The notes: a model not told the origin generated them from the sequence alone. A DNA stretch of 64,000 bases from an uncultured Alphaproteobacteria bacterium (GCA_949156565.1 CASCZI010000001.1:118856-182855); one strand, 5' to 3'. Counted from the first letter of the stretch, positions 40 through 24,540 are shown. Translations and numbers: made by a program.

Positions 40-960
40 ATGTATAAATATTGGAAAATTCGCGAAATCATTGCCAAAATGGCCGCATTAGTTGGCACAA
101 ACCGTCATAAACGACGCCAAATTCGTGACAAAATTCGCTTTGCTGGATTGATTCAAAGCACCGGTCATTATGACATTGCCCGGAAAAAGTACCCAACGCC
201 AATTGCAATATCATTGTGTTTCAATGGCGATGGATATAAATTGGCCGCGGTATCAATTCGATCCCTGGTTATGGCGGCATCTGATCGGTGTGATTACCGT
301 ATTTATTGCATTGTTGATTCCACAGTGCATAGCGAGCATCGCCGCATCCTGGGGCGCATGGTGGCCGATACCCAATCAACAATTACATTTATTGATGCCA
401 ATCATGATTTTGACACCGCCCACCGACGCCGGTGGCCGGTGGCGGTGTATTATCGCATGATGCTGCCCAAACTATTGCCGGATATCGACCAGATTATTTA
501 TGCAGACATCGATACAATATTTTGTCGTGATTTAATTGATTTGGCCTGTTTAGACATGGGGGACAATTTGGTCGCGGGCGTGGCCGATTACGCCAACGGA
601 TATATAAATTCCGGCGTCTTGGTCATGAATTTGAAACAAATGCGCGATGAAAACATCTATGACACCTGGGTCCGGGCCGCCCATAAAAAAAATTGCAAGA
701 ACCCAGACCAAGACTTATTAAACTACACCACGCGCGGGCGAAAAATATTTTTGCCGTTGCGGTACAACTTTCAATCTATGTTGGGGACACGTTTATTCAA
801 GGTACATACCGATCGTGAATTCTTTGATTTGCGTCACCATCTGGTTGTTATGCATTATTCAAATTGGATGAAACCATGGCACCCCCATAACAGACGTCCC
901 ATATATTCCAATTTATGGTGGGATGCGGCGCGACAAACAGATCTGCGATTTGATCTATGA
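40..960 (+). CDS. Glycosyltransferase family 8 (LPS/LOS glycosyltransferase-like)
   Basis: Complete ATG ORF. GT8-type motifs present: DxD (YADIDTIF), NSGVLVMNL, and a C-terminal HY..W..KPW pattern. Confidence 0.7.
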   Translation: MYKYWKIREIIAKMAALVGTNRHKRRQIRDKIRFAGLIQSTGHYDIARKKYPTPIAISLCFNGDGYKLAAVSIRSLVMAASDRCDYRIYCIVDSTVHSEHRRILGRMVADTQSTITFIDANHDFDTAHRRRWPVAVYYRMMLPKLLPDIDQIIYADIDTIFCRDLIDLACLDMGDNLVAGVADYANGYINSGVLVMNLKQMRDENIYDTWVRAAHKKNCKNPDQDLLNYTTRGRKIFLPLRYNFQSMLGTRLFKVHTDREFFDLRHHLVVMHYSNWMKPWHPHNRRPIYSNLWWDAARQTDLRFDL

Positions 961-1040
961 TTTCATTCATATTTTAAAATATTATGTTTTTTAATAAAAT
1001 AGGCTTGAATGCATGTGCAAAATAATGTATATTGGGTGAT

Positions 1041-1601
1041 ATGAAAAAAATCTTGGTATTTTTATTGATGACTCTGGCAACTGGCGCGGGGGCATATGCC
1101 GGGACCAATCCCTTTATGGGAACGCATGAACACCAGGTTGCCCTGTACATGGCCCAGGGTGTCGACAGTGGGTTTCTGGTTCCGCCGCCAACGCGATTGG
1201 TGCCGTTCTATATGCTGCAGATGCAGTATTCCCAGCCAACAACGTTCTTTAAAATCCCGGCACGCCAGTCATTGAATTTTGGCGAAACGGTGGGCTTTGG
1301 CGAAAAGTATCACTGGGATTGGGACAAATATTCAATCCCCATGATTTTTTTCAGCGAAGATTTGGCATTGGCCTATGGCGATTGCTGGTATTTCAGTGTC
1401 GGCGCCGGTGTCGGTTTCCAGGCCCAGCAAAACGAACGCATCGGGTCCAAATTACTGTTTCAATTCAAGGTGGCGGCCGGCATCCGCATGACAGACGCCA
1501 TCGCCATGGAATTATACACCCAGCATTTTTCCAACGGCAACACGGCGCCTGAAAACTATTCATACGGGTTTTACGGCGTTGGCCTGACGTACAATTTTTA
1601 A
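1041..1601 (+). CDS. PagL-like lipid A 3-O-deacylase / outer-membrane beta-barrel protein
   Basis: Signal peptide (MKKILVFLLMTLATGAGAYA). C-terminal HFSNGN motif with a downstream Glu, as in PagL. Ends in Phe, typical of OM beta-barrels. Start moved to the internal ATG because the ORF-track start is TTG. Confidence 0.5.
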   Translation: MKKILVFLLMTLATGAGAYAGTNPFMGTHEHQVALYMAQGVDSGFLVPPPTRLVPFYMLQMQYSQPTTFFKIPARQSLNFGETVGFGEKYHWDWDKYSIPMIFFSEDLALAYGDCWYFSVGAGVGFQAQQNERIGSKLLFQFKVAAGIRMTDAIAMELYTQHFSNGNTAPENYSYGFYGVGLTYNF

Positions 1602-3533: not shown

Positions 3534-3989
3534 TTATTTATACGTACAAGATTGGGTTATACTGAACCGGCCGGTTATATCATAATAGATTCCCGTCCCC
3601 AGATAACATTGCGATTTCGACGTCGCACCGACGGGGGATGTTCCCTTGGCCAATATCTTGCGGGATGCATCAATATATATATCTGTGGCCTTGGGACAGG
3701 GTAGACATACACCGACCTGATCATAATATCCCGCCCCGCATAGACTACAGTTACAGTCACCATTTTCTGTGTTTGTGATATTGACCCCATATCCCAGGTT
3801 ACATATACATTGATAACATGGGTATGTCATACATGCCATGCATGTGCCATTGGGATTGGTTATTGTCTGACGTATTCCATTAACAATCGGGAAATCTGTT
3901 CGGGTGCATTCGCTGCTACCTACACTGACCCCCATGGCATTCGCGTTCAAAAACACAATCGCCGCCACCAAGATAAATAATCTAAACAT
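3534..3989 (-). CDS. Secreted cysteine-rich protein with ephrin-receptor-like (GCC2_GCC3-type) CxxGYY...CxxCP repeat
   Basis: Internal ATG gives a signal peptide (MFRLFILVAAIVFLNANAMG). The mature part has about 17 Cys, including CSLCGAGYYDQVGVCLPCP. Confidence 0.5.
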   Translation of the reverse strand: MFRLFILVAAIVFLNANAMGVSVGSSECTRTDFPIVNGIRQTITNPNGTCMACMTYPCYQCICNLGYGVNITNTENGDCNCSLCGAGYYDQVGVCLPCPKATDIYIDASRKILAKGTSPVGATSKSQCYLGTGIYYDITGRFSITQSCTYK

Positions 3990-4011
3990 GACATCCCCCA
4001 ATCGAATAAAA

Positions 4012-4041
4012 ACCGCCGCGAAATGGGCGGTCGGGATGTTA
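4012..4041 (-). terminator. Hairpin plus T-run immediately upstream of the cysteine-rich gene start
   Basis: On the minus strand: CCGCC-GCGAAATG-GGCGG followed by TTTTTA. Confidence 0.35.
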
Positions 4042-4307
4042 GAAAAATCATATTCATGAAATGACCGCGCAGATTTTAGGATAAACCCCTGTGGTATAAC
4101 TGCGCCAACCCGACCCGTGTCGGGATGGTTGTAGACACAACCGAAATTGGATACCCGTCGTGCACACGTGCACAACGTCATGAATATGGGTTTTCTAAGC
4201 CCCGAATCCCCGTTCCCACGGAAATTCGTTTGTTATTTTATCACGCCAATCATGAAAAGACAAGTGGGCATTCACGCCCCATTACCAAATCATGACCGGC
4301 GACAAGT

Positions 4308-4969: not shown

Positions 4970-7369
<2,400 letters not shown>

Positions 7370-7448: not shown

Positions 7449-7730
7449 ATGACAGAAACAAAAGAAGATTACTTTACCAAAGATGATTATTTATCACCCA
7501 CCAAGGCGGCCATAAAATTCAAAGAATCACGAAAACTGGTCCAAGATTTAATGACCGAAATTTACCGGAAAAAAATGACGTTTAATATTGGTTCAAAAAA
7601 ACGGATTCTGGTCATATTAAAGCATTCTGCCAAGGCAAATCTCCGCAACATGGCTAATTTACGGTTACATCCATTAGGAATTGAGATTTTTCAAGAATTA
7701 TTGACCCAGGCCAAGGACAAGAGCAAATGA
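7449..7730 (+). CDS. Small hypothetical protein (93 aa), first gene of a two-gene cassette
   Basis: ATG start downstream of a TATAAT (7417-7422). Lys-rich. Overlaps the next gene by ATGA. Confidence 0.45.
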   Translation: MTETKEDYFTKDDYLSPTKAAIKFKESRKLVQDLMTEIYRKKMTFNIGSKKRILVILKHSAKANLRNMANLRLHPLGIEIFQELLTQAKDKSK

Positions 7731-8296
7731 AATTCAAACTTCTTTATTTCGGCGATATTTTAATTAATCCCAAAAAACGGGCCCAACACATTTCGGACAT
7801 CCGGATGCAGTTTCACCCCCAACTCAAAAAATTGGTTGAACATCAACCGTGGAACAATTTAACACGGTATATGATGCCCGGTGCCACAAAAAGTCCCGTT
7901 TCCACCAGACATATTGGCGGTATTAATTGGAACCCCATTATTACACCCAATTTAAAATTAATCGCGGAATTGGATATACAAATGTTACATCCCGAAATTG
8001 TGGGCGTACCCCATACAGACATCGATAACCGGGTAAAAACACTGCTCGACGGGCTGCGATGCCCCCAAAATGAACATGAAATTGGCACCAATACGCCGCG
8101 CGATATTGGACCGATTTATACGCTTCTGGATGACGATTATTTGGTAACCAAACTGTCTATTAACACCAGTCACTTGTTATCCACCGATATATTTAATTGC
8201 TATAACTGTCGAACACCGGATACGGTCTTTATGATGATTGATGTCAATGTCCGTGTGGCCGAAGGGACGTTGGAAAACCTGCCCTTTATGGTGTAA
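7727..8296 (+). CDS. Hypothetical protein (189 aa), second gene of the cassette
   Basis: Translationally coupled (ATGA overlap). No recognisable motifs. Followed by a long-stem terminator. Confidence 0.5.
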   Translation: MKFKLLYFGDILINPKKRAQHISDIRMQFHPQLKKLVEHQPWNNLTRYMMPGATKSPVSTRHIGGINWNPIITPNLKLIAELDIQMLHPEIVGVPHTDIDNRVKTLLDGLRCPQNEHEIGTNTPRDIGPIYTLLDDDYLVTKLSINTSHLLSTDIFNCYNCRTPDTVFMMIDVNVRVAEGTLENLPFMV

Positions 8297-8302
8297 CAAA
8301 AA

Positions 8303-8366
8303 AACCGGCCGATGTCCACCCACAAACGTCGATGATTTTTTTGGGTGGACATCGGCTGGTTTTTTA
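8303..8366. terminator. Bidirectional rho-independent terminator / long inverted repeat
   Basis: 20-bp stem (AACCGGCCGATGTCCACCCA / TGGGTGGACATCGGCTGGTT, one G-U pair). About 19-nt loop. A-run upstream, T-run downstream. Confidence 0.6.
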
Positions 8367-8443
8367 TTTATCCCCGTATTTCTTTTATATTAATTCCATA
8401 ATCATCCCCCCGGGGGATTGTTTGACGGCGCAGTGGGGGTTAA

Positions 8444-9514
8444 TTATACCAATGCGGCGGTAATTTGATCCTGCATCTGGAATGTGCCCAAGACGACCCA
8501 CGCAATGATCGCCGATACCAGTAAAATTCCCATTGAATTCATGACATTGGATATAGATTCCATTCGACGAATAGATTCGGCCAAATAATCATTGGCCACA
8601 CGTGACAAATTACGATCAAATTCGTTCATTTCTGCATAAATCGCCAAATCACCAATAATTTCGTCATCGGGGAAATCGCGCCCTGTTTTGATCAATGCCG
8701 CCCCCAGATTGTCCCCCCCCACGATATAGCGCAGGGCGGCATTTAAAATACTGCGTAAATAAGGGTTTGAATTGTCGGCCAACATACGCATGGCATCAAC
8801 CACCGTCACGCCCGATGCCACCATCGCCGATAATGACATCAACCATCCGACCGATGCCTGAATCTTATAAATGCGCCATGGGGGAAATTTATCAAATTTT
8901 GCCCGCAAACGCCCGGCCCAGTTCGGCAAACTAACCGTGATGACAATAACACCAATTACAAACGATGCCGTTAAAACAAACCAATAACGTGACGCCATAT
9001 CCGCCAACCAGATCAGTGATGCCGCCGATCCGCGCCATACGATACCGGGCCCCGCCGCATCGGCCAATGGTGGCACCAGATATAATCCCACCATAATAAT
9101 GATTCCCACCGTCAATGCCAACAAGAACAACGGATATGTAATGGCCGACATCATGGCCCGCTTGATCCGGCCCGTGCCATCAACAACACGTCCAACGTTT
9201 TCCAACGCCACCACCAAATTAGACAAATTTCCCGATGTCACCAATAATGTTTCATCCATCGGAACCCATCCACGTGTCGCCTCAGAAAAGGTCATCCCCC
9301 GTTCCAGGTTTTTTTGCCATTCGCGCATCACAATGGCAAATGGTTCATCCGGTTTGGCCCCCCCCTTAGATTCGATCATTTCAATTCGCCCCAGTGCATC
9401 CATCAACGTAAAATCATTCCGCAACAGGGACGCCAATTTTCGGCATACAGACATGCGGCGTCCGGTATTTAACCGAAAGGATAATTTCGCATAGAGTCGT
9501 TCAAGGCGTTCCAT
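8444..9514 (-). CDS. GspF/PilC-like (T2SS F-family) inner-membrane platform protein; PilR(R64)/BfpE/TcpE-like
   Basis: About 356-aa polytopic membrane protein with several hydrophobic segments. Immediately downstream of the GspE-like ATPase. Start moved to the internal ATG (MERLERLY) one nt after the ATPase stop. Confidence 0.55.
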   Translation of the reverse strand: MERLERLYAKLSFRLNTGRRMSVCRKLASLLRNDFTLMDALGRIEMIESKGGAKPDEPFAIVMREWQKNLERGMTFSEATRGWVPMDETLLVTSGNLSNLVVALENVGRVVDGTGRIKRAMMSAITYPLFLLALTVGIIIMVGLYLVPPLADAAGPGIVWRGSAASLIWLADMASRYWFVLTASFVIGVIVITVSLPNWAGRLRAKFDKFPPWRIYKIQASVGWLMSLSAMVASGVTVVDAMRMLADNSNPYLRSILNAALRYIVGGDNLGAALIKTGRDFPDDEIIGDLAIYAEMNEFDRNLSRVANDYLAESIRRMESISNVMNSMGILLVSAIIAWVVLGTFQMQDQITAALV

Positions 9515-9515
9515 C

Positions 9516-11141
9516 TTAATATACCCCCGGTTGATCCAACAATCCGACCCAACGTTCCAATTCATCCACCCCAATAATTCCCGACAGCATTAATTCCATC
9601 GCCGATTCTTTAAGGGTTCGTCCCCCCAGATTTTCCAGCCAATACCGCGCCGCGCCATCGGTATTTCCCGACAAGGCCATTTGTAAAAATTCAGAATTGG
9701 GAATGATAATTTCACCCGCCTTGATCCGCCCCAGCGTACCCGTCCCCCGGCATTCTTCGCACCCGGCCCCACGGATATACACCTGGCGCAGGCCCAATTC
9801 CCCAAACGCATCTTTGACCCGCCGATATGCCGGATGATTGGGATGATCGATCAAACGTTCCCGGCAATACGGACATAATTTCTTAAACAGACGCATCGAT
9901 ACCAAACCGCGCATCATTGTTTCTTCTTTTAGTTTGAACCCCTCTACCCCCATGTCCAGCAATCGCGTCAATGCCGCCATGGCAGAATTGGCGTGTAATG
10001 TGGTCCACACATTGTGTCCTGATAATGCCCCCTTAACCGTTAATTGCGCGGCCGACAACGTACGGATTTCCCCCACCATTAACGTATCGGGATCACTTCG
10101 CAGGGCGGCGGCCAGTGCCTCTGTAAACTTTTCTTCGCGCATTTCTTCGTTGGATGCATTGACAACCGGCATTTGATGCGCGCCAAAAATCTTTTGTTCC
10201 GCGGGATCTTCGACAGTAATCAGATTAATTTCATAATGTCGTTCTTTCAGCATTAACGACATGTTGCGAACCAACGTTGTGGATTTTCCCGAACTGGTTG
10301 GGCCGGCAACCACCACCAATCCCGTCGGAAAAGAGCGCAAACGCATCAACAGCTTTTGTTCATATTCGCCAAATTCTTGGGCGGTTTTGATCCCTTCGCT
10401 TGGGTTATCATAAAGCAGGCGCATCACCACATAACGTGATCCGAATGCGATGGGATTAAATTGCATACGTATCCCCAAAATCCCCACCGGCAGGTATAAA
10501 TCCTTGGTCCCACGCAGGGGTGTTCCCCCATCTTTCTGGGCCGATTGGTATTCATTTTGGGCATAATTCGAATTCGAAATATCGGCCGATGCAAATGCCG
10601 CCCGAACAAATGATTCCCCCCATTGTGAATTATATTCCAAGACGGGTTGCATACTGCCATCAATGCGGAAATAAATGGTGGTTTGATCGGCCACTTCTAT
10701 ATGAATATCCGATACTTTCTGGGCGGCGGCCTTGGCAATGATATCTACGAAATCTTTTTGCATTTGGTTGTCATAATCGCCACGGGCCGATCCATCACCC
10801 ATATGTTCCCGATAAATTTTATAAATGGCCGCAACCAAACCCAAATCGGCATAAAATGGTTCGCGCATGGGTCGATCTTGGGCGTGTAATAAATCCAAAA
10901 ACGCCAAGACCCGTCCATCATACCGATGGGTACGGGAAATGATAATTTGCCCCCCCGAAAAATACGCAATTAATCCCTGGGCATCGGGGGGTAATGCCAA
11001 CGCCCCGCCCGCCGCCGTCATCAATCGGTTATTATCCCCCAATAAAAAGTCGGCAATATCACGGTTTGATCCGGCCGCCACGGCGGGGGGAACCGATAAA
11101 TTTGATGTATCCTGCAATGATTTATTTTTATCCTGGGCCAT
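9516..11141 (-). CDS. GspE/PilB-family secretion/type IV pilus assembly ATPase
   Basis: Walker A GPTSSGKST. Asp box and His box present. Tetracysteine CPYC...CEEC. 541 aa with an N-terminal extension. Confidence 0.85.
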   Translation of the reverse strand: MAQDKNKSLQDTSNLSVPPAVAAGSNRDIADFLLGDNNRLMTAAGGALALPPDAQGLIAYFSGGQIIISRTHRYDGRVLAFLDLLHAQDRPMREPFYADLGLVAAIYKIYREHMGDGSARGDYDNQMQKDFVDIIAKAAAQKVSDIHIEVADQTTIYFRIDGSMQPVLEYNSQWGESFVRAAFASADISNSNYAQNEYQSAQKDGGTPLRGTKDLYLPVGILGIRMQFNPIAFGSRYVVMRLLYDNPSEGIKTAQEFGEYEQKLLMRLRSFPTGLVVVAGPTSSGKSTTLVRNMSLMLKERHYEINLITVEDPAEQKIFGAHQMPVVNASNEEMREEKFTEALAAALRSDPDTLMVGEIRTLSAAQLTVKGALSGHNVWTTLHANSAMAALTRLLDMGVEGFKLKEETMMRGLVSMRLFKKLCPYCRERLIDHPNHPAYRRVKDAFGELGLRQVYIRGAGCEECRGTGTLGRIKAGEIIIPNSEFLQMALSGNTDGAARYWLENLGGRTLKESAMELMLSGIIGVDELERWVGLLDQPGVY

Positions 11142-11145
11142 GGGT

Positions 11146-11883
11146 TTAATTTGCGCCCCCGATGTTTAAATGCTGTTGATTGCCATCGCGTTCAAATACA
11201 ACCCCATCATCAAGAGATATGGCCCGCACCGTATATCCATCCAATGTTTTTCCCACAGAAATACGCCGCTGTTGCCCGTTATTTAAATCTTCGATTGTGG
11301 CGGCCAATTGGTTGCCGGCCCCAATGACATTTACCAAACGCCACCGCGTGGCAATGGAATCAATGGCATCAGAATCATCGTTTTGGGCCACAGATGTCGT
11401 GACCGGCATTGGGGCCGGTGCATTTGCCATGGCCGATACTTCGCGGGCCAGACGTTCTTTTTCCGCACCTAAACGGGCGGCTTCGGCCTCTAACTTGGCT
11501 TTTTGAACCTCGAATTCTTGTTGCTGTTGTTCGGCACGGCCGGACAAAGTGTCTAATTCCATTTGTAATTTAATTTTTTCTGCCGCCAGGCGATTTAATT
11601 CCAAATCCAATTGGGCCCGTTCTTTTTCCAATTGCATGACCACTTTTTCTTGTTCAAGTGTGGTGATTTGATCGAACAACGACCCATCCACGTCATAGGA
11701 TGCAATGGCGTCGGCCGCAACTTGTTCCATGATATCATCTTCGGTTGTGACCATATCTGGGACGGAATCAACATCGATGGTTTCAACCATATCAATGTCG
11801 ACATCCGCCATGGCCGGTATGACCGGTAAAAACATTGCCATACACACCATCACCCACATCAGATTACGGATTTTATTTCGCAT
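11146..11883 (-). CDS. Periplasmic coiled-coil protein, PilP/GspC-like candidate
   Basis: N-terminal signal/TM segment, an acidic stretch, a long coiled coil (LEQEKVVMQLEKERAQLDLELNRL...), and a C-terminal beta-rich domain. Confidence 0.35.
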   Translation of the reverse strand: MRNKIRNLMWVMVCMAMFLPVIPAMADVDIDMVETIDVDSVPDMVTTEDDIMEQVAADAIASYDVDGSLFDQITTLEQEKVVMQLEKERAQLDLELNRLAAEKIKLQMELDTLSGRAEQQQQEFEVQKAKLEAEAARLGAEKERLAREVSAMANAPAPMPVTTSVAQNDDSDAIDSIATRWRLVNVIGAGNQLAATIEDLNNGQQRRISVGKTLDGYTVRAISLDDGVVFERDGNQQHLNIGGAN

Positions 11884-13174
11884 AGATTATCACCTCATAG
11901 TTCCAGGTTCTGTTGCCGGCATTCCAAACGCATCGCGTCATATAGACACCGGAAAATTCATCAAAGATACGCATAAACGCCATGGGCGTCAATTTTGATG
12001 ATGCCGCAATTTCAACAACCGATAAATGCGCGGTGTCGACCCCATTACTTAACGTATCGATTACAATGTTGGTATCGACCGGGGTTGCGATCTGTTGAAA
12101 GGCGGTGGTTACATCACGCACAATGGTATCGGCATCGCGTTCATCCAATGATGCGCCGGTCCCCAATTGGGGTAACCGCGCCCGCACCGATATCGCCGAA
12201 TCCGAATTTTCAACCACATACGCCCCGGGCATTAAATCACCCGCCACCGCATAAAATTCACCCAATGTGCCAAACGTGCGCGTGAACATGACCGATGCGT
12301 ATTCTTCGCCACATTCAACCGATGTCTGGGTCCATCCCAAAACCGGTTGCATTAAAAATCCCATCGCGTTAAAGCATACCTGGGCCCGGGCCATGGGATC
12401 GGGTAAATGATCATACGGCATAACCAATGGTGGTGGGGGCGTTGGTTTTTGAATATCAAATTGAACATCTAATTCTTGGTTTTTTTGTTCAATCTGACGC
12501 TTGTACTCGGCGGCCAGTTCGGGATTGATCGTCGAAACCTGGGGACGGGGGGATACCATTTCCGCAATCGGCACCCGAAAAAAGTAAAGCAATACATAAA
12601 TAAATCCCCCAATCAGCGCCGCCGACAAAATATTGGCGCGCACACGACTGATCATATGCAAAATGCCCCGATTGCGACCGGCCATAATATCGTCAATACG
12701 ACGTTCCACCGCGCGTGGCATGGCCCATGATTCTGGGGCAAAGAATGCACCCCAATCAGGAATCTGGGCCAATTCAACATAACGATCGCGCGCCACAGCT
12801 TCGTCATTAAATAATTTATCTTCTAAAATAATGCCGTTACGAACCGCCACCAGGTAATAGCCGCCCGTCACCCGAAACACCGCCAAAAATGATGAAAATT
12901 CCCCGAATGCATCCACAACACCGGCCGCGGCCGATGCCATGCCGGCGCGGATCCCCCCCTGATGTGGGGCCAATCCAATCATTGAACGATATTCGGTATA
13001 AAGGGTATATTTCTTGTCAATACCACGTGCCAATTGACGCGCATAATTGCGTGGGGTATATCCAACACCCATCGGCTGCCACAGCAGGCCAACGGCGTAT
13101 TTGCGACGACCAATTGAAATATACTGATATGTCACACGGCATCTCTCTCTGATGTTAAATGAATTATAACACAT
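11873..13174 (-). CDS. Bitopic assembly protein, PilO(R64)/BfpC/GspL-like candidate
   Basis: About 430 aa with a single central TM helix (ILSAALIGGFIYVLLYFF). Position and size match pilO in the R64 pilO-P-Q-R order. Start uncertain: the ORF-track start is TTG. Confidence 0.35.
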   Translation of the reverse strand: MCYNSFNIRERCRVTYQYISIGRRKYAVGLLWQPMGVGYTPRNYARQLARGIDKKYTLYTEYRSMIGLAPHQGGIRAGMASAAAGVVDAFGEFSSFLAVFRVTGGYYLVAVRNGIILEDKLFNDEAVARDRYVELAQIPDWGAFFAPESWAMPRAVERRIDDIMAGRNRGILHMISRVRANILSAALIGGFIYVLLYFFRVPIAEMVSPRPQVSTINPELAAEYKRQIEQKNQELDVQFDIQKPTPPPPLVMPYDHLPDPMARAQVCFNAMGFLMQPVLGWTQTSVECGEEYASVMFTRTFGTLGEFYAVAGDLMPGAYVVENSDSAISVRARLPQLGTGASLDERDADTIVRDVTTAFQQIATPVDTNIVIDTLSNGVDTAHLSVVEIAASSKLTPMAFMRIFDEFSGVYMTRCVWNAGNRTWNYEVIIYAK

Positions 13175-13313
13175 TTTGATCGTGAAACGCAAACACAGAA
13201 TATTGTCCCCATCGATTAAAACGTAAATTTAAAACAGGTGGGCCATTGATGCCTGATCTTTGGGAAATCAAGGATTTATAAAAATTCAGGAATCCGATGG
13301 ATTCCTGAGATAA

Positions 13314-13811
13314 TTATTGATGACATGCCGACGGGTTACCGTACATGTCCCGGCATCCGGGGGCGGGGGTTGTGGGTGTGCCATATTGAACCGGAATCAA
13401 CACCGGATATGTCCCCGCCCCATAGGGTTGATATTGATATGCGTTAACCGACATCGACGCGTCGCGCGCCGTTTGAATCCGACGGGGATTGGGACAATTG
13501 TAAACATTTGCCGCCAAAACAAATGACCGTTCGGGCCCAAAGACAACCCATTCATTGGGACGGGTCCGTTGACTGGTAATCAAATAGGCGTTGCCAGGTC
13601 GGGCCTGATCTGCGATACGATTTTCCAGATACCGACGTGCATCTTCGGCATCATAGACGGAAACATCTGCCTCTAACTTATATAAAAACGTACAATCGGC
13701 CGGTTCTTCGTCTAATTGGACCAAATACTCACTGCCATTCTGATTTTTGATGTATCCGCCACATGACGTCAAAACCAAACACAACATGACGGGGTATAAA
13801 TATTTTCTCAT
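13314..13811 (-). CDS. Lipoprotein (lipobox LTSC)
   Basis: Signal peptide MRKYLYPVMLCLVLTSCGG with lipobox Cys. Immediately downstream of lpxC. Confidence 0.55.
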   Translation of the reverse strand: MRKYLYPVMLCLVLTSCGGYIKNQNGSEYLVQLDEEPADCTFLYKLEADVSVYDAEDARRYLENRIADQARPGNAYLITSQRTRPNEWVVFGPERSFVLAANVYNCPNPRRIQTARDASMSVNAYQYQPYGAGTYPVLIPVQYGTPTTPAPGCRDMYGNPSACHQ

Positions 13812-14771
13812 CTATGCGCCTTTTGTTTCCTTGGGTTCAATTATATCATAATTTGCCGGATCACTAAACAGTTTTTTTAACACCAAATTATTTAACGCAT
13901 GACTGCCCTTGTATGAATCCAAGACACCACACAAAAATCCGCCGGCCGTGGCCATATCACCAATGGCATCGATGATTTTATGCCGCACAAATTCGTCCGC
14001 CCATGTTAATGGATTCAATGTCCCATCACCGGCATCATTTAATGCAATAACATTATCACTGTTTGCGCCACGACCCATACCATGACGTTTTAAATATTCC
14101 CATTCCGAATATTTTCCAAATGTCCGGGCACGGGCAATATTGTGTAAAAAGTTATCGCGGGAACGCGTTGTGCCATCAAACGTGTATTCAAAAGATTGGT
14201 GACCAATAATCTTTTCAGGATATACCAATGTTGCCCGAACGGTTAATGCATGATCGGTGCCCGGGGATAATTTGACATATCCATCCATACGACGGCCCGT
14301 GATCATGTTCATTAATCTTAATTTAATGCGCGTGACCCATCCCAATGAACGTATCACCGATCGCGCATGCACAATCACCGGCCGACGTACCACAATCCGG
14401 CGCATCGATGCAAAATCTGGGTCGGGGGATGCCGCCAAAATCTTCCGATAAAAGATATCTGCACTGCCATCGCAAATGGGGGTTTCGGGTCCATCAACAT
14501 CGATAACCGCCCGGTCGATTCCCGCCATAAATAATGCCGCCATAACATGTTCCACCGTTTGAACATGAACACCATCACAATGACCCACCGTTGTGTTGCG
14601 TAAATGCGTTGCCCCCACATGATCATAGGTGGCCGGAACTTTATCACGGCCCATATCACTGCGTCGAAAGAAAATTCCGGGTTGGGCCGATGGCCGAATG
14701 GTCATGGTAACCGGTGCCCCCGAATGAATACCATGTCCCTTGATCTTAATCACATGCGTTGGTGTTGCCAC
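13812..14771 (-). CDS. lpxC: UDP-3-O-acyl-N-acetylglucosamine deacetylase
   Basis: LpxC motifs present: HVMAAL, TFGKYSEWEYL, HKIIDAIGD, GSHALNN. Confidence 0.9.
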   Translation of the reverse strand: MATPTHVIKIKGHGIHSGAPVTMTIRPSAQPGIFFRRSDMGRDKVPATYDHVGATHLRNTTVGHCDGVHVQTVEHVMAALFMAGIDRAVIDVDGPETPICDGSADIFYRKILAASPDPDFASMRRIVVRRPVIVHARSVIRSLGWVTRIKLRLMNMITGRRMDGYVKLSPGTDHALTVRATLVYPEKIIGHQSFEYTFDGTTRSRDNFLHNIARARTFGKYSEWEYLKRHGMGRGANSDNVIALNDAGDGTLNPLTWADEFVRHKIIDAIGDMATAGGFLCGVLDSYKGSHALNNLVLKKLFSDPANYDIIEPKETKGA

Positions 14772-15666
14772 TGATTTTCTCCTTTAACCAGATATAAAAA
14801 TCGTTATCAATAACGGTTTGTAATGGGGCAAATTTAATTTTTTCCCGAACCGATGGGGATAACCGCATCCAATCTTTCTCTGTCGTCACCAATGACGCGC
14901 CATGCCTCGTGGCCCAATTCATTAATTTTTCAATATCTGAATCAGTATATTGATAATGATCGGGAAATGACCGCCGATAATCCGCCCCAATGGCATCAAA
15001 AAATTTCTTGGGATATCCAATTCCGGCAAACGCCGCCAATTTGGTGCCGGGTTCAAACGGATTTATCGTCCGGTTTGTTGCATAAAAAACCTTGACCCCA
15101 TCGGGCAATTTAAACCGGGGATTGGGTTTTGATGACCCAATGACAATAACCGCATCCGCCCGCCGCAATGCCCCCATCCCTTCGCGCAGAGGCCCGGCCG
15201 GTAACATAAATCCGTTTCCAATACCAATCCGCGCATCAAAGACAATAATCGATAATGTTTTCTTAATTTTTGGGTTTTGAAACCCATCATCCATCACAAT
15301 GGGGGTATCTGATTTTTGATGATCCAATAAACGAATATTGGCCTTGCGGTTACCGGTATGTACCTGAATCCCGGCATGAGAGAGCATTAATGCCTCGTCC
15401 CCGACGGACGCGGTATGTTTGCTTTTTTTATATCCACGCATAACCACCGGCGCATTTAAAAAAGATGCAATACACCGAACAATGGGTGTTTTACCCACCC
15501 CCCCGGCCAAGATGTTGCCCACGCATATCACCGGCCGACGGGGCGTATACACGACCAGACGTCGCATCCCATAAACCATGCGCGATAATAAATAATAAAT
15601 CCACGACACCGGTACCAATAACCATGCCATTGGACCGCGCCGCATAAACCACCATGGTGTTTTCAT
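14746..15666 (-). CDS. lpxK: Tetraacyldisaccharide 4'-kinase
   Basis: P-loop ICVGNILAGGVGKTP, typical of LpxK. 306 aa. Confidence 0.85.
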   Translation of the reverse strand: MKTPWWFMRRGPMAWLLVPVSWIYYLLSRMVYGMRRLVVYTPRRPVICVGNILAGGVGKTPIVRCIASFLNAPVVMRGYKKSKHTASVGDEALMLSHAGIQVHTGNRKANIRLLDHQKSDTPIVMDDGFQNPKIKKTLSIIVFDARIGIGNGFMLPAGPLREGMGALRRADAVIVIGSSKPNPRFKLPDGVKVFYATNRTINPFEPGTKLAAFAGIGYPKKFFDAIGADYRRSFPDHYQYTDSDIEKLMNWATRHGASLVTTEKDWMRLSPSVREKIKFAPLQTVIDNDFYIWLKEKISGNTNACD

Positions 15667-15686
15667 TGTTTTATGCCCCCAATTGT

Positions 15687-16472
15687 TTATTTGCGACCGC
15701 GCGCGTGACGCCGGGATGCCCGTTCGGCCCGACGGGCCTGTTTAAATTCATGGGCATTTAAATCCTGTTCCACCGGATAAAGATCAAATTCCGCATCCAT
15801 TTCACGCAATTGTTTTACCATTAGATCTTCTAAATTCTTACGGGCCGATTCAAAATCTGTGGCATTTATTTTTGGATCGATAAAGATGGGTTCCCCCAAA
15901 CGTACCGTTATTTTAGAAAATGGCAACGCCACCAAATAACGATCCCATCGATCTTGTAACCACGCATGGGAACATGAATAACACACCGGGATGATGGGGG
16001 CACCACTCATTTTGGCAAAATACATTGCACCATCTTGGACCCGCAATGATGGGCCACCGGGTCCATCGGGTGATAAACATAATCCCCAATCCCCCCGACG
16101 CAATACCCGAACCCCTTCGCGCAGGACGGAAATCCCGCCTTCGGACGTGCTGCCATAGATTGATCGCAGGCCAAATAACCGCTGTAATTTAGCCATCATG
16201 CGACCGTCTTGGTGACGACTGGCGATGGCATAGGCCCGCATTCCCCCCACACAAATAATGGGGGATAACATCATACTGCGCCCGTGCCAAAAGACAAAAA
16301 TCGCCGGTTTTTTGCGGTATTTTTTAAAGATTTCATACCCTTGGATCTTTTTAAAACACGTTAGATAAATAAACCAAATCATGACGGCCATAAAGACCGC
16401 AACCACCCACTGAATCAAGGGCAGATGCAAAATCGGTGTCCAAAATTTTTTCCACGCTTTGCGAAATGTCAT
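15687..16472 (-). CDS. DUF374 / lysophospholipid-acyltransferase-like protein associated with lipid A genes
   Basis: N-terminal TM segment. Size and position adjacent to lpxK, as is common in alphaproteobacteria. Confidence 0.5.
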   Translation of the reverse strand: MTFRKAWKKFWTPILHLPLIQWVVAVFMAVMIWFIYLTCFKKIQGYEIFKKYRKKPAIFVFWHGRSMMLSPIICVGGMRAYAIASRHQDGRMMAKLQRLFGLRSIYGSTSEGGISVLREGVRVLRRGDWGLCLSPDGPGGPSLRVQDGAMYFAKMSGAPIIPVCYSCSHAWLQDRWDRYLVALPFSKITVRLGEPIFIDPKINATDFESARKNLEDLMVKQLREMDAEFDLYPVEQDLNAHEFKQARRAERASRRHARGRK

Positions 16473-16875: not shown

Positions 16876-17616
16876 CTAAATATCAAAATCCAAGACCAAT
16901 GGGAAATGATCTGAAACATCTGTGTCTACGACTTTAAAGTCATTAACCTTTACATCATCTGTTACAAAAATATAATCAACAACCATATCCCCTGAATCCA
17001 GACCGTCATAAAAACTGGGACCTGTTGTTTTTATATGATATCTCCCAGGCAGATTTATCAGATGTTATTCTATAATTTTAATACTGGGACTGGACGGTAA
17101 CAGATTAAAATCCCCAACGACAATCGTTGGTATTTTATCTTTTAAAACTTCGGATATTATAAATTCTGATCGGGAAACAGTTCTGTCATCACCCATGCGG
17201 CTTGCGTTCCATATGCCGTGAACATTAATTATTTTTACTTGTTTGCCATTTGATAATTCAATAACCACCACCAGAATACTGCGGGCCCAATCTTTCTCTC
17301 TAAAACGCGTTGCGTCATATTCTGTTTTATAATTGTTGTAATAGAATTCGTTTTCTGCCGCCAGAATCAATTGATTGGATAATAGTTGTGTGTCCTGTTC
17401 TACTTGGCCACCACAGTCCCGGATACAAATACCATTTTTTGTTCTACATCTGGCCATAAATAATGGTGCAAAGAACGAATACGGCATACGATGAACAAAG
17501 TAATCTGATATCTCTTTACCACTTTTGAACGGGGCAAAAAAGCCATCTGCATGCGGCATCATACTTTCTTGCAATGCAATCATATCAGGGTTCAGATGGT
17601 TTAATAACTCTATCAC
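16876..17616 (-). pseudogene. Endonuclease/exonuclease/phosphatase (EEP) family gene, frameshifted
   Basis: The 183-aa ORF carries the N-terminal LQE and VGDFN motifs. The C-terminal part (DYIFVTDD...VSDHFPLVLDFDI*) continues in a different frame after the stop at 17065. Confidence 0.5.
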
Positions 17617-17670
17617 CCCTGCTGTATTATCTTTCTTTATCGATATATTAAAACTTATCAGTCGCTTTAC

Positions 17671-18351
17671 TTAATCTTTATACTCGCTTTCCAACTTGGT
17701 ATAGGTCAGATGGTCCATCCACGTTCCATCCGGCATTAAATGCGAATCCCGAACACACCCATCCAGGTGGTATCCGGCATTTTCTATTGATTTTTTACTG
17801 TGCAGATTTCCCGCCATGCATTGCCGCGTCACACGATGAACCTTTAACTGTTCAAAGGAAATTTGTTCCAAGGTATTATGTACTTCTTGACTAAATCCAT
17901 GTCCCCAGGCCGACTTTACAAACCACACGGCTGCAAATTGTATCGTCTTGCTTTGCGGCCAATAATGAATCCGTTGATATCCAACCAAATTATTATTATG
18001 AAAAATATACCACACCACGCCATTATCGGCGGCCATTTTGTCATCATTTTTCATGATTTCCAGAACATCATCCACAGATTCCGGCAACGGTTTATCATAT
18101 TTTGGCGAATAGTTTATAAATGCAAAATCCCCACGGTTTTCAGCCTTTAACGTATTCCATATCAATTCTGCGTTTTCCGCACTTGGCTCCAAGAGACGCA
18201 GTTCCAGCCTGAGTGTTTTTAGATTTTTCTTAAATAAATCAAAAAATTTTTCCATACGTCGTGTATCCCTGGGGTTAATCGGTATAATTTTATACTCTTT
18301 TTTGACGAATTTCAATAATTTCCCCGCCAATGGCGGGGGATTAATTTTCAT
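17671..18351 (-). CDS. GNAT family N-acetyltransferase (RimJ/RimL-like)
   Basis: Acetyltransferase fold motifs present (VGYQRI...QFAAVWF...WGHGF). 226 aa. Confidence 0.7.
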   Translation of the reverse strand: MKINPPPLAGKLLKFVKKEYKIIPINPRDTRRMEKFFDLFKKNLKTLRLELRLLEPSAENAELIWNTLKAENRGDFAFINYSPKYDKPLPESVDDVLEIMKNDDKMAADNGVVWYIFHNNNLVGYQRIHYWPQSKTIQFAAVWFVKSAWGHGFSQEVHNTLEQISFEQLKVHRVTRQCMAGNLHSKKSIENAGYHLDGCVRDSHLMPDGTWMDHLTYTKLESEYKD

Positions 18352-18989
18352 AAACAGATGATTCTATTGAGCTTATAACCAGTGTATATGCCGCATGTTT
18401 GGGAATACGTTGTGAATCCCATTCGCGTCTGATATCCATTTCCCATTTGACGGGTGCAAACGGGGAGTTAAAGAAATCACTATACAGATGACCCCGCTGA
18501 CTTTCGGATAAAAATCTTATTGTATGGTCAACGGCCCCCGCTTTTTAGGCGGGAATATTTGTTTAAAGTGCCATATTCTAGCACCCTGTATAGCGAAGTT
18601 CTTTACGCTTCGGCATCCTTTTTGGATACAATATAAAAATGACTAAGGTCAAGTTTCCAAATCCAATAACATTAATGTATCATTCCGCAATCCCACGTTG
18701 TATTTATTATTTGCGTCATATATAATTTATTAAAATGAATGCGATTAACGGTGTTAAAAGTAAACAAGATTTTGATAAAATGACCATACCCTTGTGCGCG
18801 GTCATTTAGTATCCATGGTTGCAACAAAAACTTATCTTGCCCGGTACCCCGATCCCGTGTCCGTCATTTACAAATTCTTAATGCCCCACTTACAATTATT
18901 TTTGGGCCCATACAGCGAAATGATATAGCTCTGGATTTTTATTACCATGTCACGTATCATGTAAATTGTACACCCATAGGAGAATCATT

Positions 18990-19334
18990 GTGAAAAAATA
19001 TTTTATGCTTTTATCCCTTTTATCCGCCACGGCATGCACATTACATTGTTCCGATATCACTGGACAATGGGTTATGCCGATACCAGGCATGGAAAATAGC
19101 GTCCAAGGAATTGATTTAAGACCCCGGGGTGTGGCCCAATCGATTAATATGGCAACATTAAAATACGATACATGGTATCAAGAATCATGTGATAAAATAT
19201 CCATCCATGGGATCAGCATTGGAAACGGTCAAACAATTGAATTTACGGAAACATATCTGGTATCTATGCCCAATAAAAATACATTAAATTTAACCCAAGA
19301 TAATGGTTATACACAAACATATACCAGAAAATAG
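18990..19334 (+). CDS. Small lipoprotein (lipocalin/META-like candidate)
   Basis: GTG start after an AGGAGA RBS. Signal peptide MKKYFMLLSLLSATAC with lipobox. GQW motif after the Cys. Confidence 0.45.
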   Translation: MKKYFMLLSLLSATACTLHCSDITGQWVMPIPGMENSVQGIDLRPRGVAQSINMATLKYDTWYQESCDKISIHGISIGNGQTIEFTETYLVSMPNKNTLNLTQDNGYTQTYTRK

Positions 19335-19385
19335 TCTGGTGACTTTTTCCTTGTCAATGGGGGATAAAACCATACAATATCCCCC

Positions 19386-20978
19386 ATGCAGATCAAAAAT
19401 CTATCTTTATCATTTGGAACGACGGTTATTTATGACAATGCCGAATTTAACCTGGGGGGGCGTGATAAATGTGGCATTGTTGGGGTAAATGGGGCGGGAA
19501 AATCCACGCTGTTGCGGGTTTTGATGGGGGACGTCATTCCCGATTCTGGCGATATTGATACAAATGGGGCAGATTTCGGTTATTTACCCCAAACAATCGA
19601 ATACACCCATTGTGATATGACAGTATGGGATTTCTTGATATCTGGCCGACCCATTGATATTTTGGAATCTGAATTGGCGGCGGCCTATGACCGGTTGGTG
19701 GATAATCCCGATGATGCCGCCATCGCGGCCGATATTTCGCGAATCCAAGAACGATTGGATCATTATGATGTCTATAATGCCGATAATACTTTGTTGACAT
19801 TAATTGATCAAATGCGAATTGATCCGGCATGGTTGAATATGCGTTTGCGCGATTTATCCGGCGGACAAAAATCACGGGTGGCGTTTGCGCGCCTGCTCTA
19901 TTCCATGCCGGGCGTTATGTTATTAGATGAACCAACAAATCATTTAGATCATGAAACCCGTGAATTTGTGACACAATATTTAAAAAAATACCGCGGTATG
20001 GTTATGATCATCAGTCACGATACCGTCTTTTTAAATGCGGTGGTTAACAAAATCTTATATATCGACAAGCTCACCCACAAAATAATGACATTTGATGGCG
20101 ATTACGATACCTATAAACTGAAAATGGCAGAATTGCGCCATAAGCGCGATGTTACCATTTCCGCCCAAGAACGTCAGATAACACATCTGAAAAATTTTGT
20201 ATCACACGCCACCAATGCCAGTCCCACAAACCACGCCTTGAAACGCGCAGGAAAAACACGCGCCAAACAATTGGCCAAGATTATGGCCACACGTATGGTA
20301 CGGGATATAGAATATAAAAAATTACAAATGGATTTATCCCCCCGGCGTGCGGGGGCCCGCGTTCCCATCACGGTTGATGATTTGTGGTTTCGGTATCCGG
20401 GAAAACAGTTAATATATCGTCAATTATCATTTTATATCAATGGGGGGGAACGTTTTTTAATTTCGGGGGGAAATGGTTCAGGGAAATCAACACTCGTTAA
20501 ACTTATCTTGGGACAATTAACGCCGTATAAGGGACAAATCACCATAAACCCAAAAACCGATATTGCCTATTATGCCCAAGAATTAGAAGATTTAGATCCC
20601 CATCAAACCGTTTTAGAAAGTGTTTCTGGCACCGACACGGATTATACCGATATGCAATTACGTGCGGTGTTGGGAAACTTTTTATTTTATGACACGGATG
20701 TATTTAAACAGGTATCAAGTCTGTCACCGGGGGAACGGGCCCGTTTGGCATTGTGTCGATTATTATTACGACGGGCAAATATGTTGGTGTTGGACGAACC
20801 AACCAATCATCTGGACCCAGATACGGTTGGCATTATCGCGGATAATTTTCATGATTTTTCCGGAACAATTATTTTAATCAGTCACCACAAAGATTTTATC
20901 CGACAAATTGGCATGACACGGGTATTGTATTTACCGTCGGGACGCATTGATTATTGGGACGAAAACGACGCGGATTAA
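19386..20978 (+). CDS. ABC-F family ATPase (EttA/Uup-like translation factor)
   Basis: Two ABC cassettes with Walker A (GVNGAGKST; GGNGSGKST) and signature motifs (LSGGQKSRV; LSPGERARL). No TM domain. Confidence 0.85.
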   Translation: MQIKNLSLSFGTTVIYDNAEFNLGGRDKCGIVGVNGAGKSTLLRVLMGDVIPDSGDIDTNGADFGYLPQTIEYTHCDMTVWDFLISGRPIDILESELAAAYDRLVDNPDDAAIAADISRIQERLDHYDVYNADNTLLTLIDQMRIDPAWLNMRLRDLSGGQKSRVAFARLLYSMPGVMLLDEPTNHLDHETREFVTQYLKKYRGMVMIISHDTVFLNAVVNKILYIDKLTHKIMTFDGDYDTYKLKMAELRHKRDVTISAQERQITHLKNFVSHATNASPTNHALKRAGKTRAKQLAKIMATRMVRDIEYKKLQMDLSPRRAGARVPITVDDLWFRYPGKQLIYRQLSFYINGGERFLISGGNGSGKSTLVKLILGQLTPYKGQITINPKTDIAYYAQELEDLDPHQTVLESVSGTDTDYTDMQLRAVLGNFLFYDTDVFKQVSSLSPGERARLALCRLLLRRANMLVLDEPTNHLDPDTVGIIADNFHDFSGTIILISHHKDFIRQIGMTRVLYLPSGRIDYWDENDAD

Positions 20979-21604
20979 TTATCCGCCATACACCGTTTTA
21001 ATCGGGTGCCGTCATCGTGGGCATCAATATCTTTGTTCTTGATTTCTTCGTTGGCACGTATGCGGCGACGCATTAAAATTAATTCTGGATGATCTTGTAA
21101 CCGTTTATTTAATTCATCCAATGCCGCATCAATATTTCCATTCAAAGGGACAAAGACGGGCATAACCGTTCGGGCCGCGTGATCAATGGCCGCCAAAATA
21201 TCGTCATGCATATCATCAATCACCGATAAATAGGCGCGAATATGTGAATCTTCGTGTGATAAAATGGCATCATAGGCGCATGTCCCCCGTGCATGCCGTG
21301 AATCAATTTGGACCAAAAAATCATTATACCCAATCGTTGCATCCACAGATTTTAACGCGACACAATACCCATCTTCGATCGGGGTCACATCACCCGTAAT
21401 GTCGTAATTATCAACCAACGTGGCCATTACATTTCCATGCAATAGATCCATCGGCTTTAACGGTTGAACCACCGATTTTTGCCATTGGGGGGCGGTCATG
21501 GTCACCCGAGGGGATATTTTATAGACCACACAATCATCCGCGCCATGGGCCGATATTATTATGCCCATTACCGCCCAAAACAAAAGAAACGAATACCGGA
21601 TCAC
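20975..21604 (-). CDS. Secreted protein with HExxH motif (putative small Zn-dependent peptidase, DUF922-like)
   Basis: Signal peptide. HEDSH motif. ATGA overlap with the virB4 stop implies co-transcription. Confidence 0.45.
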   Translation of the reverse strand: MIRYSFLLFWAVMGIIISAHGADDCVVYKISPRVTMTAPQWQKSVVQPLKPMDLLHGNVMATLVDNYDITGDVTPIEDGYCVALKSVDATIGYNDFLVQIDSRHARGTCAYDAILSHEDSHIRAYLSVIDDMHDDILAAIDHAARTVMPVFVPLNGNIDAALDELNKRLQDHPELILMRRRIRANEEIKNKDIDAHDDGTRLKRCMADN

Positions 21605-24014: not shown

Positions 24015-24311
24015 TTATGCCGCCAATCGTTTGGGTATTTGAAGTTTAAACAGTTTTATTTTTGCCGCAATAATCTGGCCCAGTTGGGGTTCCCGCTTGG
24101 CCACACCGGCCAAAATAAAATGCACCACACATACCGATCCCAGGAAAAACAGTGGCAACATTCCCATATCATCGCCGCCGGCCAAAACGCTGGTGATGAA
24201 AATGGCGACAAAAATCAAAAATTGAATGACAAAATTCATGACGGCCAGTGTATAGGGCACATAAAATATACGTGCCGGATTGGCCAATGCCTTCATAACT
24301 TGCTGTTTCAT
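24015..24311 (-). CDS. virB3: Type IV secretion system protein VirB3-like
   Basis: About 98-aa membrane protein immediately upstream of virB4. Internal ATG with a GGGAGA RBS. The ORF-track N-terminal extension was rejected. Confidence 0.55.
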   Translation of the reverse strand: MKQQVMKALANPARIFYVPYTLAVMNFVIQFLIFVAIFITSVLAGGDDMGMLPLFFLGSVCVVHFILAGVAKREPQLGQIIAAKIKLFKLQIPKRLAA

Positions 24312-24334
24312 GTCTCTCGTCTCCCACGGGTATG

Positions 24335-24540
24335 AATGAATTATAACAATTTCAACATTTTTCAACAAGTATAAAAAAGATTTTCCCAAAAATGTTAAAA
24401 GCGTTGAAAACACCACCCAATATCCACCGGTAATTACCGACGATTGTTTTGAACAATTTTTTACAAACCCCGCGGTTTTCGCCAAATTTTTTGTTGAAAA
24501 CATTGTGGAAAAAATTTGAAAACGTTTTTCAACAAAACCA
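24335..24540. promoter_or_regulatory. Repeat-rich divergent control region between virB3 and rpmJ
   Basis: Multiple TTGAAAAC / GTTTTCAA motifs. Tandem TTCAACA x2. Inverted repeat TTGTTGAAAAC...GTTTTTCAACAA. Small palindrome ATTGTTttgAACAAT. Confidence 0.4.

Follow-up and report, generated by a model that had tools for sequence, protein, structure and literature searches.

A 64-kb stretch of DNA from an uncultured alphaproteobacterium (GCA_949156565.1, CASCZI010000001.1, positions 118856-182855; the whole stretch is hereafter called the window) contains four co-directional and tightly packed genes (13135-8444, minus strand) coding, in this order, for a PilO2/BfpC-type bitopic protein, a PilP protein, a tetracysteine ATPase of the GspE family and a platform protein of the GspF family. 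The genes are situated between lpxC (13812-14771), upstream, and gyrB (4970-7369), downstream. They probably code for a pilus assembly subcomplex of the inner membrane, part of a type IVb machine of the R64/BFP/PAPI-1 ("PilO2") kind, which would be chromosomal and vertically inherited, with its outer-membrane half at a locus beside sufBC and its pilin and prepilin peptidase genes elsewhere in the genome.

Gene families and predicted fold

The first gene of the module (11873-13135, minus strand) codes for a bitopic protein of 420 aa with a match to PF06864 (PAP_PilO; 36.7 bits, cutoff 26.7). A preliminary description of this DNA had assigned it correctly to its family but with a length of 439 aa, corresponding to the longest mechanical open reading frame (ORF, 13192-11873); the GTG at 13135 is the true start codon, and it is also the one used in the gene calls of public assemblies. 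The TTG at 13192 was discarded as a start codon because the conserved promoter and ribosome-binding site of the operon fall within that 5′ extension. The second gene (11146-11883, minus strand) codes for a periplasmic protein of 245 aa, matching TIGR03021 (pilP_fam) with 42.3 bits over a cutoff of 34.65, and composed of a Sec signal, an acidic region, a coiled coil (residues ca. 75-155) and a C-terminal PilP domain (125-226). The third gene (9516-11141, minus strand), in the position of PilQ/BfpD/TcpT, codes for a GspE/PilB-family assembly ATPase of 541 aa, which matches T2SSE with 208.7 bits and shows a Walker A motif (GPTSSGKST), an Asp box (DPAE), a Walker B motif (LMVGEIR), a His box (GHNVWTTLH) and a tetracysteine signature (CPYC at residue 423 and CEEC at 461). 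The last gene (8444-9514, minus strand), in the position of PilR/BfpE, codes for a polytopic platform protein of the GspF/PilC family, of 356 aa from its ATG, and matches T2SSF (81.1 bits) in two stretches of a single platform gene. The junctions between the genes consist of an 11-nt overlap of the pilO stop with the pilP start, a 4-nt gap between pilP and the ATPase gene and a 1-nt gap between the latter and the platform gene.

These data agree with the preliminary description, which had proposed four packed, co-directional genes within 8444-13811, their family assignments and an order like that of R64 pilO-pilP-pilQ-pilR: all four genes are on the minus strand, the scores of the profile hidden Markov models exceed the curated cutoffs for PilO, PilP, T2SSE and T2SSF, and the families read in gene order reproduce the R64 arrangement.

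The structure of the PilO-type protein was modeled by AlphaFold2 from an alignment of 49 homologs, with a mean predicted local distance difference test (pLDDT) score of 89.7. The model comprises a cytoplasmic actin-like domain (residues 1-155), a transmembrane helix (ca. 165-185), a coiled segment and a periplasmic part with two ferredoxin-like repeats (240-420). A Foldseek search with this model returned as sole significant matches the cytoplasmic domains of PilO2 from Burkholderia pseudomallei (4BYZ and 4BZ0) and of BfpC from enteropathogenic Escherichia coli (EPEC; 3VHJ), with E values of ca. 1e-8, and these three structures were again matched in a sequence search with the family profile (E ca. 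1e-11). The proposal that the N-terminal domain is BfpC-like is thus borne out by structure prediction, and the model agrees with the actin-like fold on which PF06864 was defined (Lassaux et al., 2014; PMC3984277). A bitopic PF06864 protein with an actin-like cytoplasmic domain, one of the features of membership in the type IVb class, is therefore present in the module, and the modeled fold identifies it as a predicted GspL-like connector.

Conservation and genomic context

Searches with PilO yielded 716 matches, mostly from gut metagenomes, and an exhaustive search showed a gradient of identities from 51 % to ca. 22 %; some members of the clade are already named by NCBI as "type 4b pilus protein PilO2 [Alphaproteobacteria bacterium]". 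For comparison we assembled a clade set of 86 PilO-type loci from gut metagenomes, with identities measured against the window; one of the searches, a PilO-profile metagenome scan (JGI), gave 80 loci. An ATPase identical to that of the window was found on a 287-kb contig of the metagenome-assembled genome GCA_948993165.1 and on several metagenome contigs. The genes for PilP, the ATPase and the platform follow pilO in order in all 51 loci with enough sequence, and PilP was found in 83 of the 86 loci; homologs of it are also encoded at the equivalent position of two distant loci, L012 (labeled "Rickettsiales bacterium") and L013.

Median identity to the window was 80 % for the ATPase, 70 % for the platform, 56 % for PilO and 52 % for PilP, compared with 61 % for lpxC and 88 % for gyrB. 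Because the median identity of the ATPase reaches 80 %, comparable to that of housekeeping genes, the alignments indicate that the pil genes are under strong purifying selection. The genomic context is also conserved: lpxC was found at most 3 kb upstream of pilO in 59 of 62 loci and gyrB within ca. 10 kb downstream in 38 of 38, these housekeeping flanks being stable in relatives down to ca. 36 % PilO identity, and the GC content of the module equals that of its surroundings. The housekeeping, non-mobile setting that the preliminary description had pointed out is conserved in the 86 loci. Carriage on a conjugative plasmid or a genomic island, which is typical of the family although not strictly defining, was not seen, the flanks being lpxC and gyrB and the GC content matching. 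As judged by these comparisons, the operon is vertically inherited, and is neither a recent insertion nor a relic.

Operon boundaries

The pil genes are preceded by a spacer of 178 nt that separates them from a small lipoprotein gene and contains, in order, a hairpin followed by a run of T, a box of conserved sequence (TCTGTGTTTGC), an extended −10 element (TGTTATAAT, with TATAAT at 13168-13163) and a ribosome-binding site (AGAGAGAGA) immediately 5′ of the pilO GTG. The terminator-like hairpin (13286-13308, minus strand) has 10 bp followed by the T-run and is directly 3′ of the lipoprotein stop codon; relatives keep its position with a different sequence. The putative promoter and leader of the operon (13145-13199, minus strand) were identified by consensus match and conservation, and the promoter layout is kept in relatives, a search with a strict pattern recovering it from at least 35 of 98 loci. 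At the other end, RNA folding of the minus strand from 8443 to 8297 predicts a long perfect hairpin (8298-8365) with A and T runs on its flanks, situated between the converging platform gene and a gene for a 189-aa protein, and this hairpin is likely a bidirectional terminator that closes the pil operon. From these consensus matches and their conservation, the four pil genes would constitute a transcription unit of their own, spanning 13199-8298.

The gene upstream of the spacer (13314-13811, minus strand) codes for a clade-specific lipoprotein of 165 aa with the lipobox LTSC. It was found upstream of pilO in 58 of 62 loci, with a median identity of 65.5 % and a core (residues 17-115) that is nearly invariant in an alignment of the clade, and it is absent from L012, L013 and a further distant locus, L014. 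Its product had no match in Pfam, NCBIfam, PADLOC or PDB, and a single-sequence AlphaFold2 model was unusable (pLDDT 33). Since its ATG abuts the lpxC stop codon, the gene probably belongs to the lpxK-lpxC transcription unit. We considered whether the product could be a pilotin, a role that had been raised for it together with that of an accessory protein, or a remnant of TcpQ; both were rejected, with an hhalign probability of 0.8 % against TcpQ and no PDB match. A pilotin role is not indicated, because a conserved putative terminator parts the gene from the pil operon, the gene abuts lpxC and its product is unrelated to TcpQ; this transcriptional separation argues against a dedicated role in the pilus.

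A second locus coding for TcpQ and a secretin

No secretin is encoded in the window, as concluded from a reading of all large ORFs, a Pfam search with 27 ORFs and tblastn with reference partner proteins. Distant relatives of PilO, reached with a profile, are encoded in loci labeled Rickettsiales or Alphaproteobacteria, and two of these, L013 (GCA_031549385.1) and L014, show a contiguous arrangement: genes for a TcpQ-domain protein, a secretin, PilO, PilP, the ATPase and the platform, with housekeeping genes around them and type IV secretion system (T4SS) genes beside them. With 55 % identity for the ATPase and 44 % for the platform, these two proteins are much closer to their counterparts in the window than those of plasmid operons used as references. 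The TcpQ and secretin sequences of L013 and L014 had no match in the window or in the 86 clade loci.

A profile made from the secretins of L013 and L014 produced 689 matches, and most of the best 120 were secretins of ca. 542 aa, with ca. 40 % identity, from gut metagenomes. Every one of the gut loci inspected has the same organization: sufC, sufB and a gene for a protein of ca. 180 aa on one strand, and tcpQ and the secretin gene on the other, followed by rpsT, plsY, dprA and dnaA. The products of the gut clade are a TcpQ-domain protein of 255-315 aa and a PilN-type lipoprotein secretin of 534-545 aa with the lipobox LMGC; such a pair adjoins the pil genes in L013 and L014 and in none of the 86 clade loci.

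Several lines of evidence connect both types of loci. Each secretin locus has a twin in tetranucleotide composition among the PilO loci: secretin locus L015 correlates with L103 and L104 with r = 0.964, with identical GC content (36.6 %) and an origin in the same two cohorts (ONAT22-1 and BRZ), and the further pairs are L019 with L085 (0.962), L020 with L042 (0.961) and L021 with L012 (0.916). Divergence is parallel, the secretins being 76-88 % identical within the clade and 39-40 % to that of L013, and the ATPases 80 % (median) within the clade, 76 % to L012 and 55 % to L013. Abundance is also alike (716 PilO and 689 secretin matches). Finally, both types of loci complement each other in their suf genes: an isolated sufD-like gene (24825-25505, minus strand, in the window), which adjoins virB3, occurs solely in PilO-type loci, and sufB and sufC, beside the tcpQ-secretin pair (e.g., L110, 6299-8319), solely in secretin-type loci. 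This suf split hints that one ancestral rearrangement parted both gene sets. Because composition, cohort, divergence, abundance and suf genes match, and because a contiguous form exists in the outgroups, the secretin is likely encoded elsewhere in the window's own genome, and a machine lacking a secretin is unlikely. The terms "orphan" and "secretin-less", which had been applied to the module, are accordingly disfavored: the outgroups carry tcpQ and the secretin gene directly upstream of pilO, and in the gut clade a second locus codes for the pair. No orphan protein families specific to the lineage were common to PilO-type and secretin-type loci.

The region downstream of the secretin gene is variable. 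It contains genes for a 128-aa protein with a Sec signal and a DYIKNKPD motif like those of phage tail fibers and, next to it, for a 325-aa glycine-rich protein in L110 (11878-13245) and also in L113 and L115, the latter gene being frameshifted in L115; in L019, an insert after the secretin gene (11892-15808) codes for proteins of 268 and 1037 aa. These variable genes may code for surface or adhesin cargo. They were examined as candidate pilins and ruled out, being secreted proteins with a Sec signal that are tail-fiber-like, Gly-rich or Cys-rich.

Secreted Cys-rich proteins with repeated motifs of the C..C..GY type and no Pfam match are encoded in the window at 3534-4181 and 50909-51679, both on the minus strand, and proteins of similar style are encoded next to dnaA in secretin loci (L015, 16455-17816; L110, 18177-19622; L020, 18224-20008); BLAST detected no similarity between those of the window and those of the secretin loci. 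Secretin loci also have, next to gatC, a tandem array, with between one and four copies according to species, of genes for paralogous proteins of ca. 130-150 aa (L020, 1739-3448; L015, 3893-4300; L110, 2980-3426) with the common C-terminal motif GKCKD.F....IGK.FF...Y...K. In L014, phage genes coding for an S24 repressor-like peptidase, a head-tail connector and a T7-like capsid protein (17019-21434) follow the contiguous pil module at a distance of a few kb.

Neighboring genes

Two genes, for proteins of 189 aa (7727-8296, plus strand) and 93 aa (7449-7730, plus strand), adjoin gyrB in the whole clade. The larger protein, of 189 aa, is an orphan of extreme conservation, with a median identity of 83 % over 50 loci (88 % for gyrB) and 69 % in the distant L012, and no match in Pfam or NCBIfam; the gene pair had no match in PADLOC.

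A group of T4SS genes is situated ca. 8 kb from the pil operon and comprises a virB3-like gene (24015-24569), virB4 (21601-24012) and a 209-aa ORF (20975-21604), all on the minus strand, with no further T4SS genes in the window. VirB4 is encoded within 10 kb of pilO in 25 of the 86 loci, and the pil blocks of the outgroups are preceded by T4SS genes (those for TrbC and VirD4 directly before tcpQ in L013, and those for VirB4 and VirB3 in L014). Like the pil genes, those of the T4SS are dispersed, and their association with the pilus module seems to be an ancient one.

In L012, the slot upstream of pilO (7452-9902) is occupied by genes for a 368-aa lipoprotein and for a Slam-like (SlipAM/TPR) outer-membrane protein, which replace lpxC and the small lipoprotein gene. 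The Slam-like gene was considered as a part of the system and discarded, being found in one locus only. Near the lpx genes of the window there are genes for a PagL-like lipid A deacylase (1032-1601, plus strand) and a family 8 glycosyltransferase (40-960, plus strand); from their presence, the lineage makes lipopolysaccharide, and probably remodels it, despite its small genome.

Host lineage

One of the gut-type secretins, 78 % identical to that of L020, is named as belonging to Candidatus Enterousia merdequi. Enterousia is placed in the uncultured alphaproteobacterial order Rs-D84, with genomes of 0.67-1.6 Mb and rod-shaped cells that have MreB, RodA and MrdA and lack flagella, the tricarboxylic acid cycle and respiration; members are predicted to be obligate symbionts or parasites that obtain metabolites from other cells, with numerous biosynthetic pathways and standard transporters missing (Begmatov et al., 2025; PMC12306168). 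MreB, RodA and MrdA are all encoded in the window, and the PilO-bearing contigs of 851-935 kb fit the genome sizes of Rs-D84. The lineage of the window appears, therefore, to be Enterousia/Rs-D84. The small genome postulated in the preliminary description is plausible, in keeping with these contigs and with the literature on Enterousia/Rs-D84, and we found no support for the intracellular lifestyle also postulated: the metagenome-assembled genomes are from the gut lumen, and the literature predicts a partner-dependent lifestyle (PMC12306168). In the accessible literature on RF32, Rickettsiales and Rs-D84 we found no report of a pilus for the lineage and no description of the organization of this system, of its conservation throughout the lineage or of its context.

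Comparison with known systems and alternative explanations

Two type IVb operons were used as references. That on an E. coli plasmid (L011), which we take to be bfp-like by its gene order and the BfpA-like N-terminus of its pilin, codes for a pilin, a TcpQ-domain protein, a secretin, PilO2, a small protein, the ATPase, the platform, a second ATPase, an A24 peptidase and a transglycosylase; the second is located on the megaplasmid of Methylorubrum extorquens AM1, and both share the core of secretin, PilO, PilP, ATPase and platform. Among the proteins of the reference operons, only PilO, the ATPase and the platform match the window and the clade loci, with identities of 31-33 % for the ATPase and 29-30 % for the platform.

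The module resembles the type IVb pili of R64 and PAPI-1 in having a PF06864 PilO, a TIGR03021 PilP, an ATPase of the GspE family with a tetracysteine signature and a platform of the GspF family in the same order, and the probable partner secretin of the clade is, as in those systems, a PilN-kind lipoprotein encoded after a TcpQ-domain protein. It differs from them in being chromosomal, with a fixed housekeeping synteny and at least two loci, whereas the R64 kind is carried on a plasmid or island, in the lack of adjacent equivalents of pilS, pilV, pilU or pilT at the module of the window, and in the length of PilP, which has 245 aa with a long coiled-coil insert versus ca. 128-150 aa in the references. 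The bundle-forming pilus (BFP) of EPEC (BfpG-B-C-U-D-E) is plasmid-borne and encoded in one operon with pilin, minor pilins, retraction ATPase, peptidase and transglycosylase, none of which is found near the module of the window. The ATPase falls below every equivalog cutoff for the ATPases of the type II secretion system (T2SS; TIGR02533, 213 versus 630 bits), type IVa pili (TIGR02538, 192 versus 676 bits) and Tad/Flp (type IVc) pili (TIGR03819, 41.9 versus 373 bits), and the platform is likewise far under the cutoffs for T2SS (TIGR02120, 62 versus 424 bits) and type IVa pili (PilC models, 42-45 versus 700 bits). Additionally, a single fused PilO2-type protein replaces the separate PilM, PilN and PilO of type IVa pili, and one platform gene is found instead of the TadB and TadC of Tad pili. 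Compared with the T2SS (GspC/L/M/E/F), the gene order is L-like, C-like, E and F, and not C-D-E-F-G, as the preliminary description had anticipated, there are no pseudopilin genes, and the probable partner secretin belongs to the PilN/TcpQ type.

Protein secretion by type IVb pili is known, as in the case of TcpF, secreted by the toxin-coregulated pilus (TCP), and of CofJ, by CFA/III. A complete machine devoted mainly to T2SS-like protein secretion, or to DNA uptake, instead of adhesion by a long pilus, would fit the parallels of its architecture with GspL, GspC, GspE, GspF and GspD, the position of comEC two genes downstream of the platform gene in L013 and of dprA near the secretin gene in the gut loci, and a lineage lacking many biosynthetic pathways and standard transporters. 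Nevertheless, we consider this explanation rather unlikely: we identified no genes for pseudopilins or substrates, the scores of the ATPase and the platform are far under the T2SS equivalog cutoffs, and the proximity of dprA and comEC may simply be ordinary housekeeping synteny.

The interpretation of the operon as part of a type IVb pilus machine has to be weighed against several observations. The PilO protein is just 20-24 % identical to annotated or characterized plasmid PilO2 proteins. Look-ups by assembly, contig and sample never placed PilO-type and secretin-type loci in the same one, so that the presence of both in the genome of the window would follow from the matched properties described above. 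The assignment to Enterousia/Rs-D84 is indirect, and a survey of Rs-D84 genomes in mSphere gives type IV pili for a different lineage only (PMC12306168). We searched for partner genes in the window and in ca. 20 kb around each of the 86 PilO-type and 18 secretin-type loci. A scan for the prepilin motif (G-x4-E followed by a hydrophobic stretch), which in a control recovered the five prepilins of the E. coli reference operon and a PilV-like gene in Methylorubrum, found no canonical prepilin in the window, nor up to 10 kb away from the loci of either type (more than 100 loci), and no A24 peptidase was detected in the window or in any of these loci by tblastn or, for the unassigned ORFs of the window, by Pfam. 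A complete pilus system is thus not demonstrated, because there is no prepilin or A24 peptidase gene near either locus. The earlier statement that pilin, secretin and prepilin peptidase are missing from the window is confirmed by ORF reading, Pfam, tblastn and the controlled motif scan, and the suggestion that the partner genes are dispersed elsewhere probably holds for tcpQ and the secretin gene, at a compositionally matched second locus; pilin and peptidase genes were not located in the window or around the loci searched. Since no characterized relative is known to work without pilins, the pilin and peptidase genes would be expected at further loci.

The same negative results can be read otherwise. 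Because no prepilin is encoded near either of the loci nor beside the contiguous form of the outgroups L013 and L014, which also lack an adjacent peptidase gene, the split type IVb-derived machine might be a partner-contact or uptake organelle of an Enterousia/Rs-D84 bacterium with a genome of ca. 1 Mb and an obligate dependence on partners, running without canonical prepilin and prepilin peptidase; we regard this as improbable. Even less probable, in our view, is a minimal or repurposed machine of ATPase, platform, PilO and PilP without canonical pilin and peptidase, and possibly without secretin, acting as a novel device for uptake, secretion or cell contact. The outcome of the scans near the loci and in the outgroups favors it, as does the fact that genomes of ca. 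1 Mb shed non-essential genes; it conflicts, however, with the general knowledge that members of the superfamily need (pseudo)pilins, and we know of no characterized member of the T2SS and type IV pilus superfamily that works without them. Moreover, the tcpQ-secretin pair is present in compositionally matched contigs, 76-88 % conserved, PilP retains the domain that in related systems contacts the secretin and that may do so here, and the searches reached ca. 20 kb around each locus. Finally, it is most improbable that the module is a non-functional, decaying relic of an integrated R64-type or integrative and conjugative element that also brought the nearby virB3 and virB4, for although R64-type pil genes normally travel with conjugation systems, and T4SS genes are found within 10 kb in 25 of the 86 loci and, in L013 and L014, immediately precede the module, the ORFs are intact and in order in the 51 loci, the ATPase is as conserved as housekeeping genes, the putative promoter and ribosome-binding site are conserved, the housekeeping flanks are stable down to ca. 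36 % PilO identity and the GC content is that of the surroundings.

Biological significance

If the operon codes, as we favor, for the half of a type IVb pilus machine located at the inner membrane, its operation can be outlined by analogy with characterized families. The hexameric ATPase would dock on the actin-like cytoplasmic domain of the PilO2-type protein and on the GspF-type platform, and ATP hydrolysis would drive the platform, by which prepilins would be extracted from the membrane and polymerized. The periplasmic domains of PilO2 and PilP would link this motor to the outer-membrane secretin, and the machine would be split, with the TcpQ-domain protein and the PilN-type lipoprotein secretin encoded at the second housekeeping locus, beside sufBC. 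Its role would likely be contact with partner or host cells, or uptake or secretion at them.

Pilus-type envelope machines kept under selection in genomes of ca. 1 Mb are also found in Patescibacteria, which are likewise predicted to live off other cells, although they belong to a different phylum and their pili to a different class (T4a/Com-like). A comparison of Rs-D84 with these ultra-small, partner-dependent bacteria has already been drawn, and Rs-D84/Enterousia, with genomes of ca. 1 Mb or less, are widespread in human and animal guts, where the way in which they make contact with their partners is unknown (PMC12306168). A pilus motor that is conserved like housekeeping genes and has a conserved putative promoter of its own is a candidate device for contact, uptake or secretion. 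Should closed genomes prove to lack pilin and peptidase genes, this would be, if true, the first pilin-independent member of the superfamily. Individual proteins of the system were already automatically annotated as PilO2; the organization described here suggests that a type IVb system, which usually forms one mobile operon, can be fixed in the chromosome with vertical inheritance and be split into inner-membrane and outer-membrane loci.

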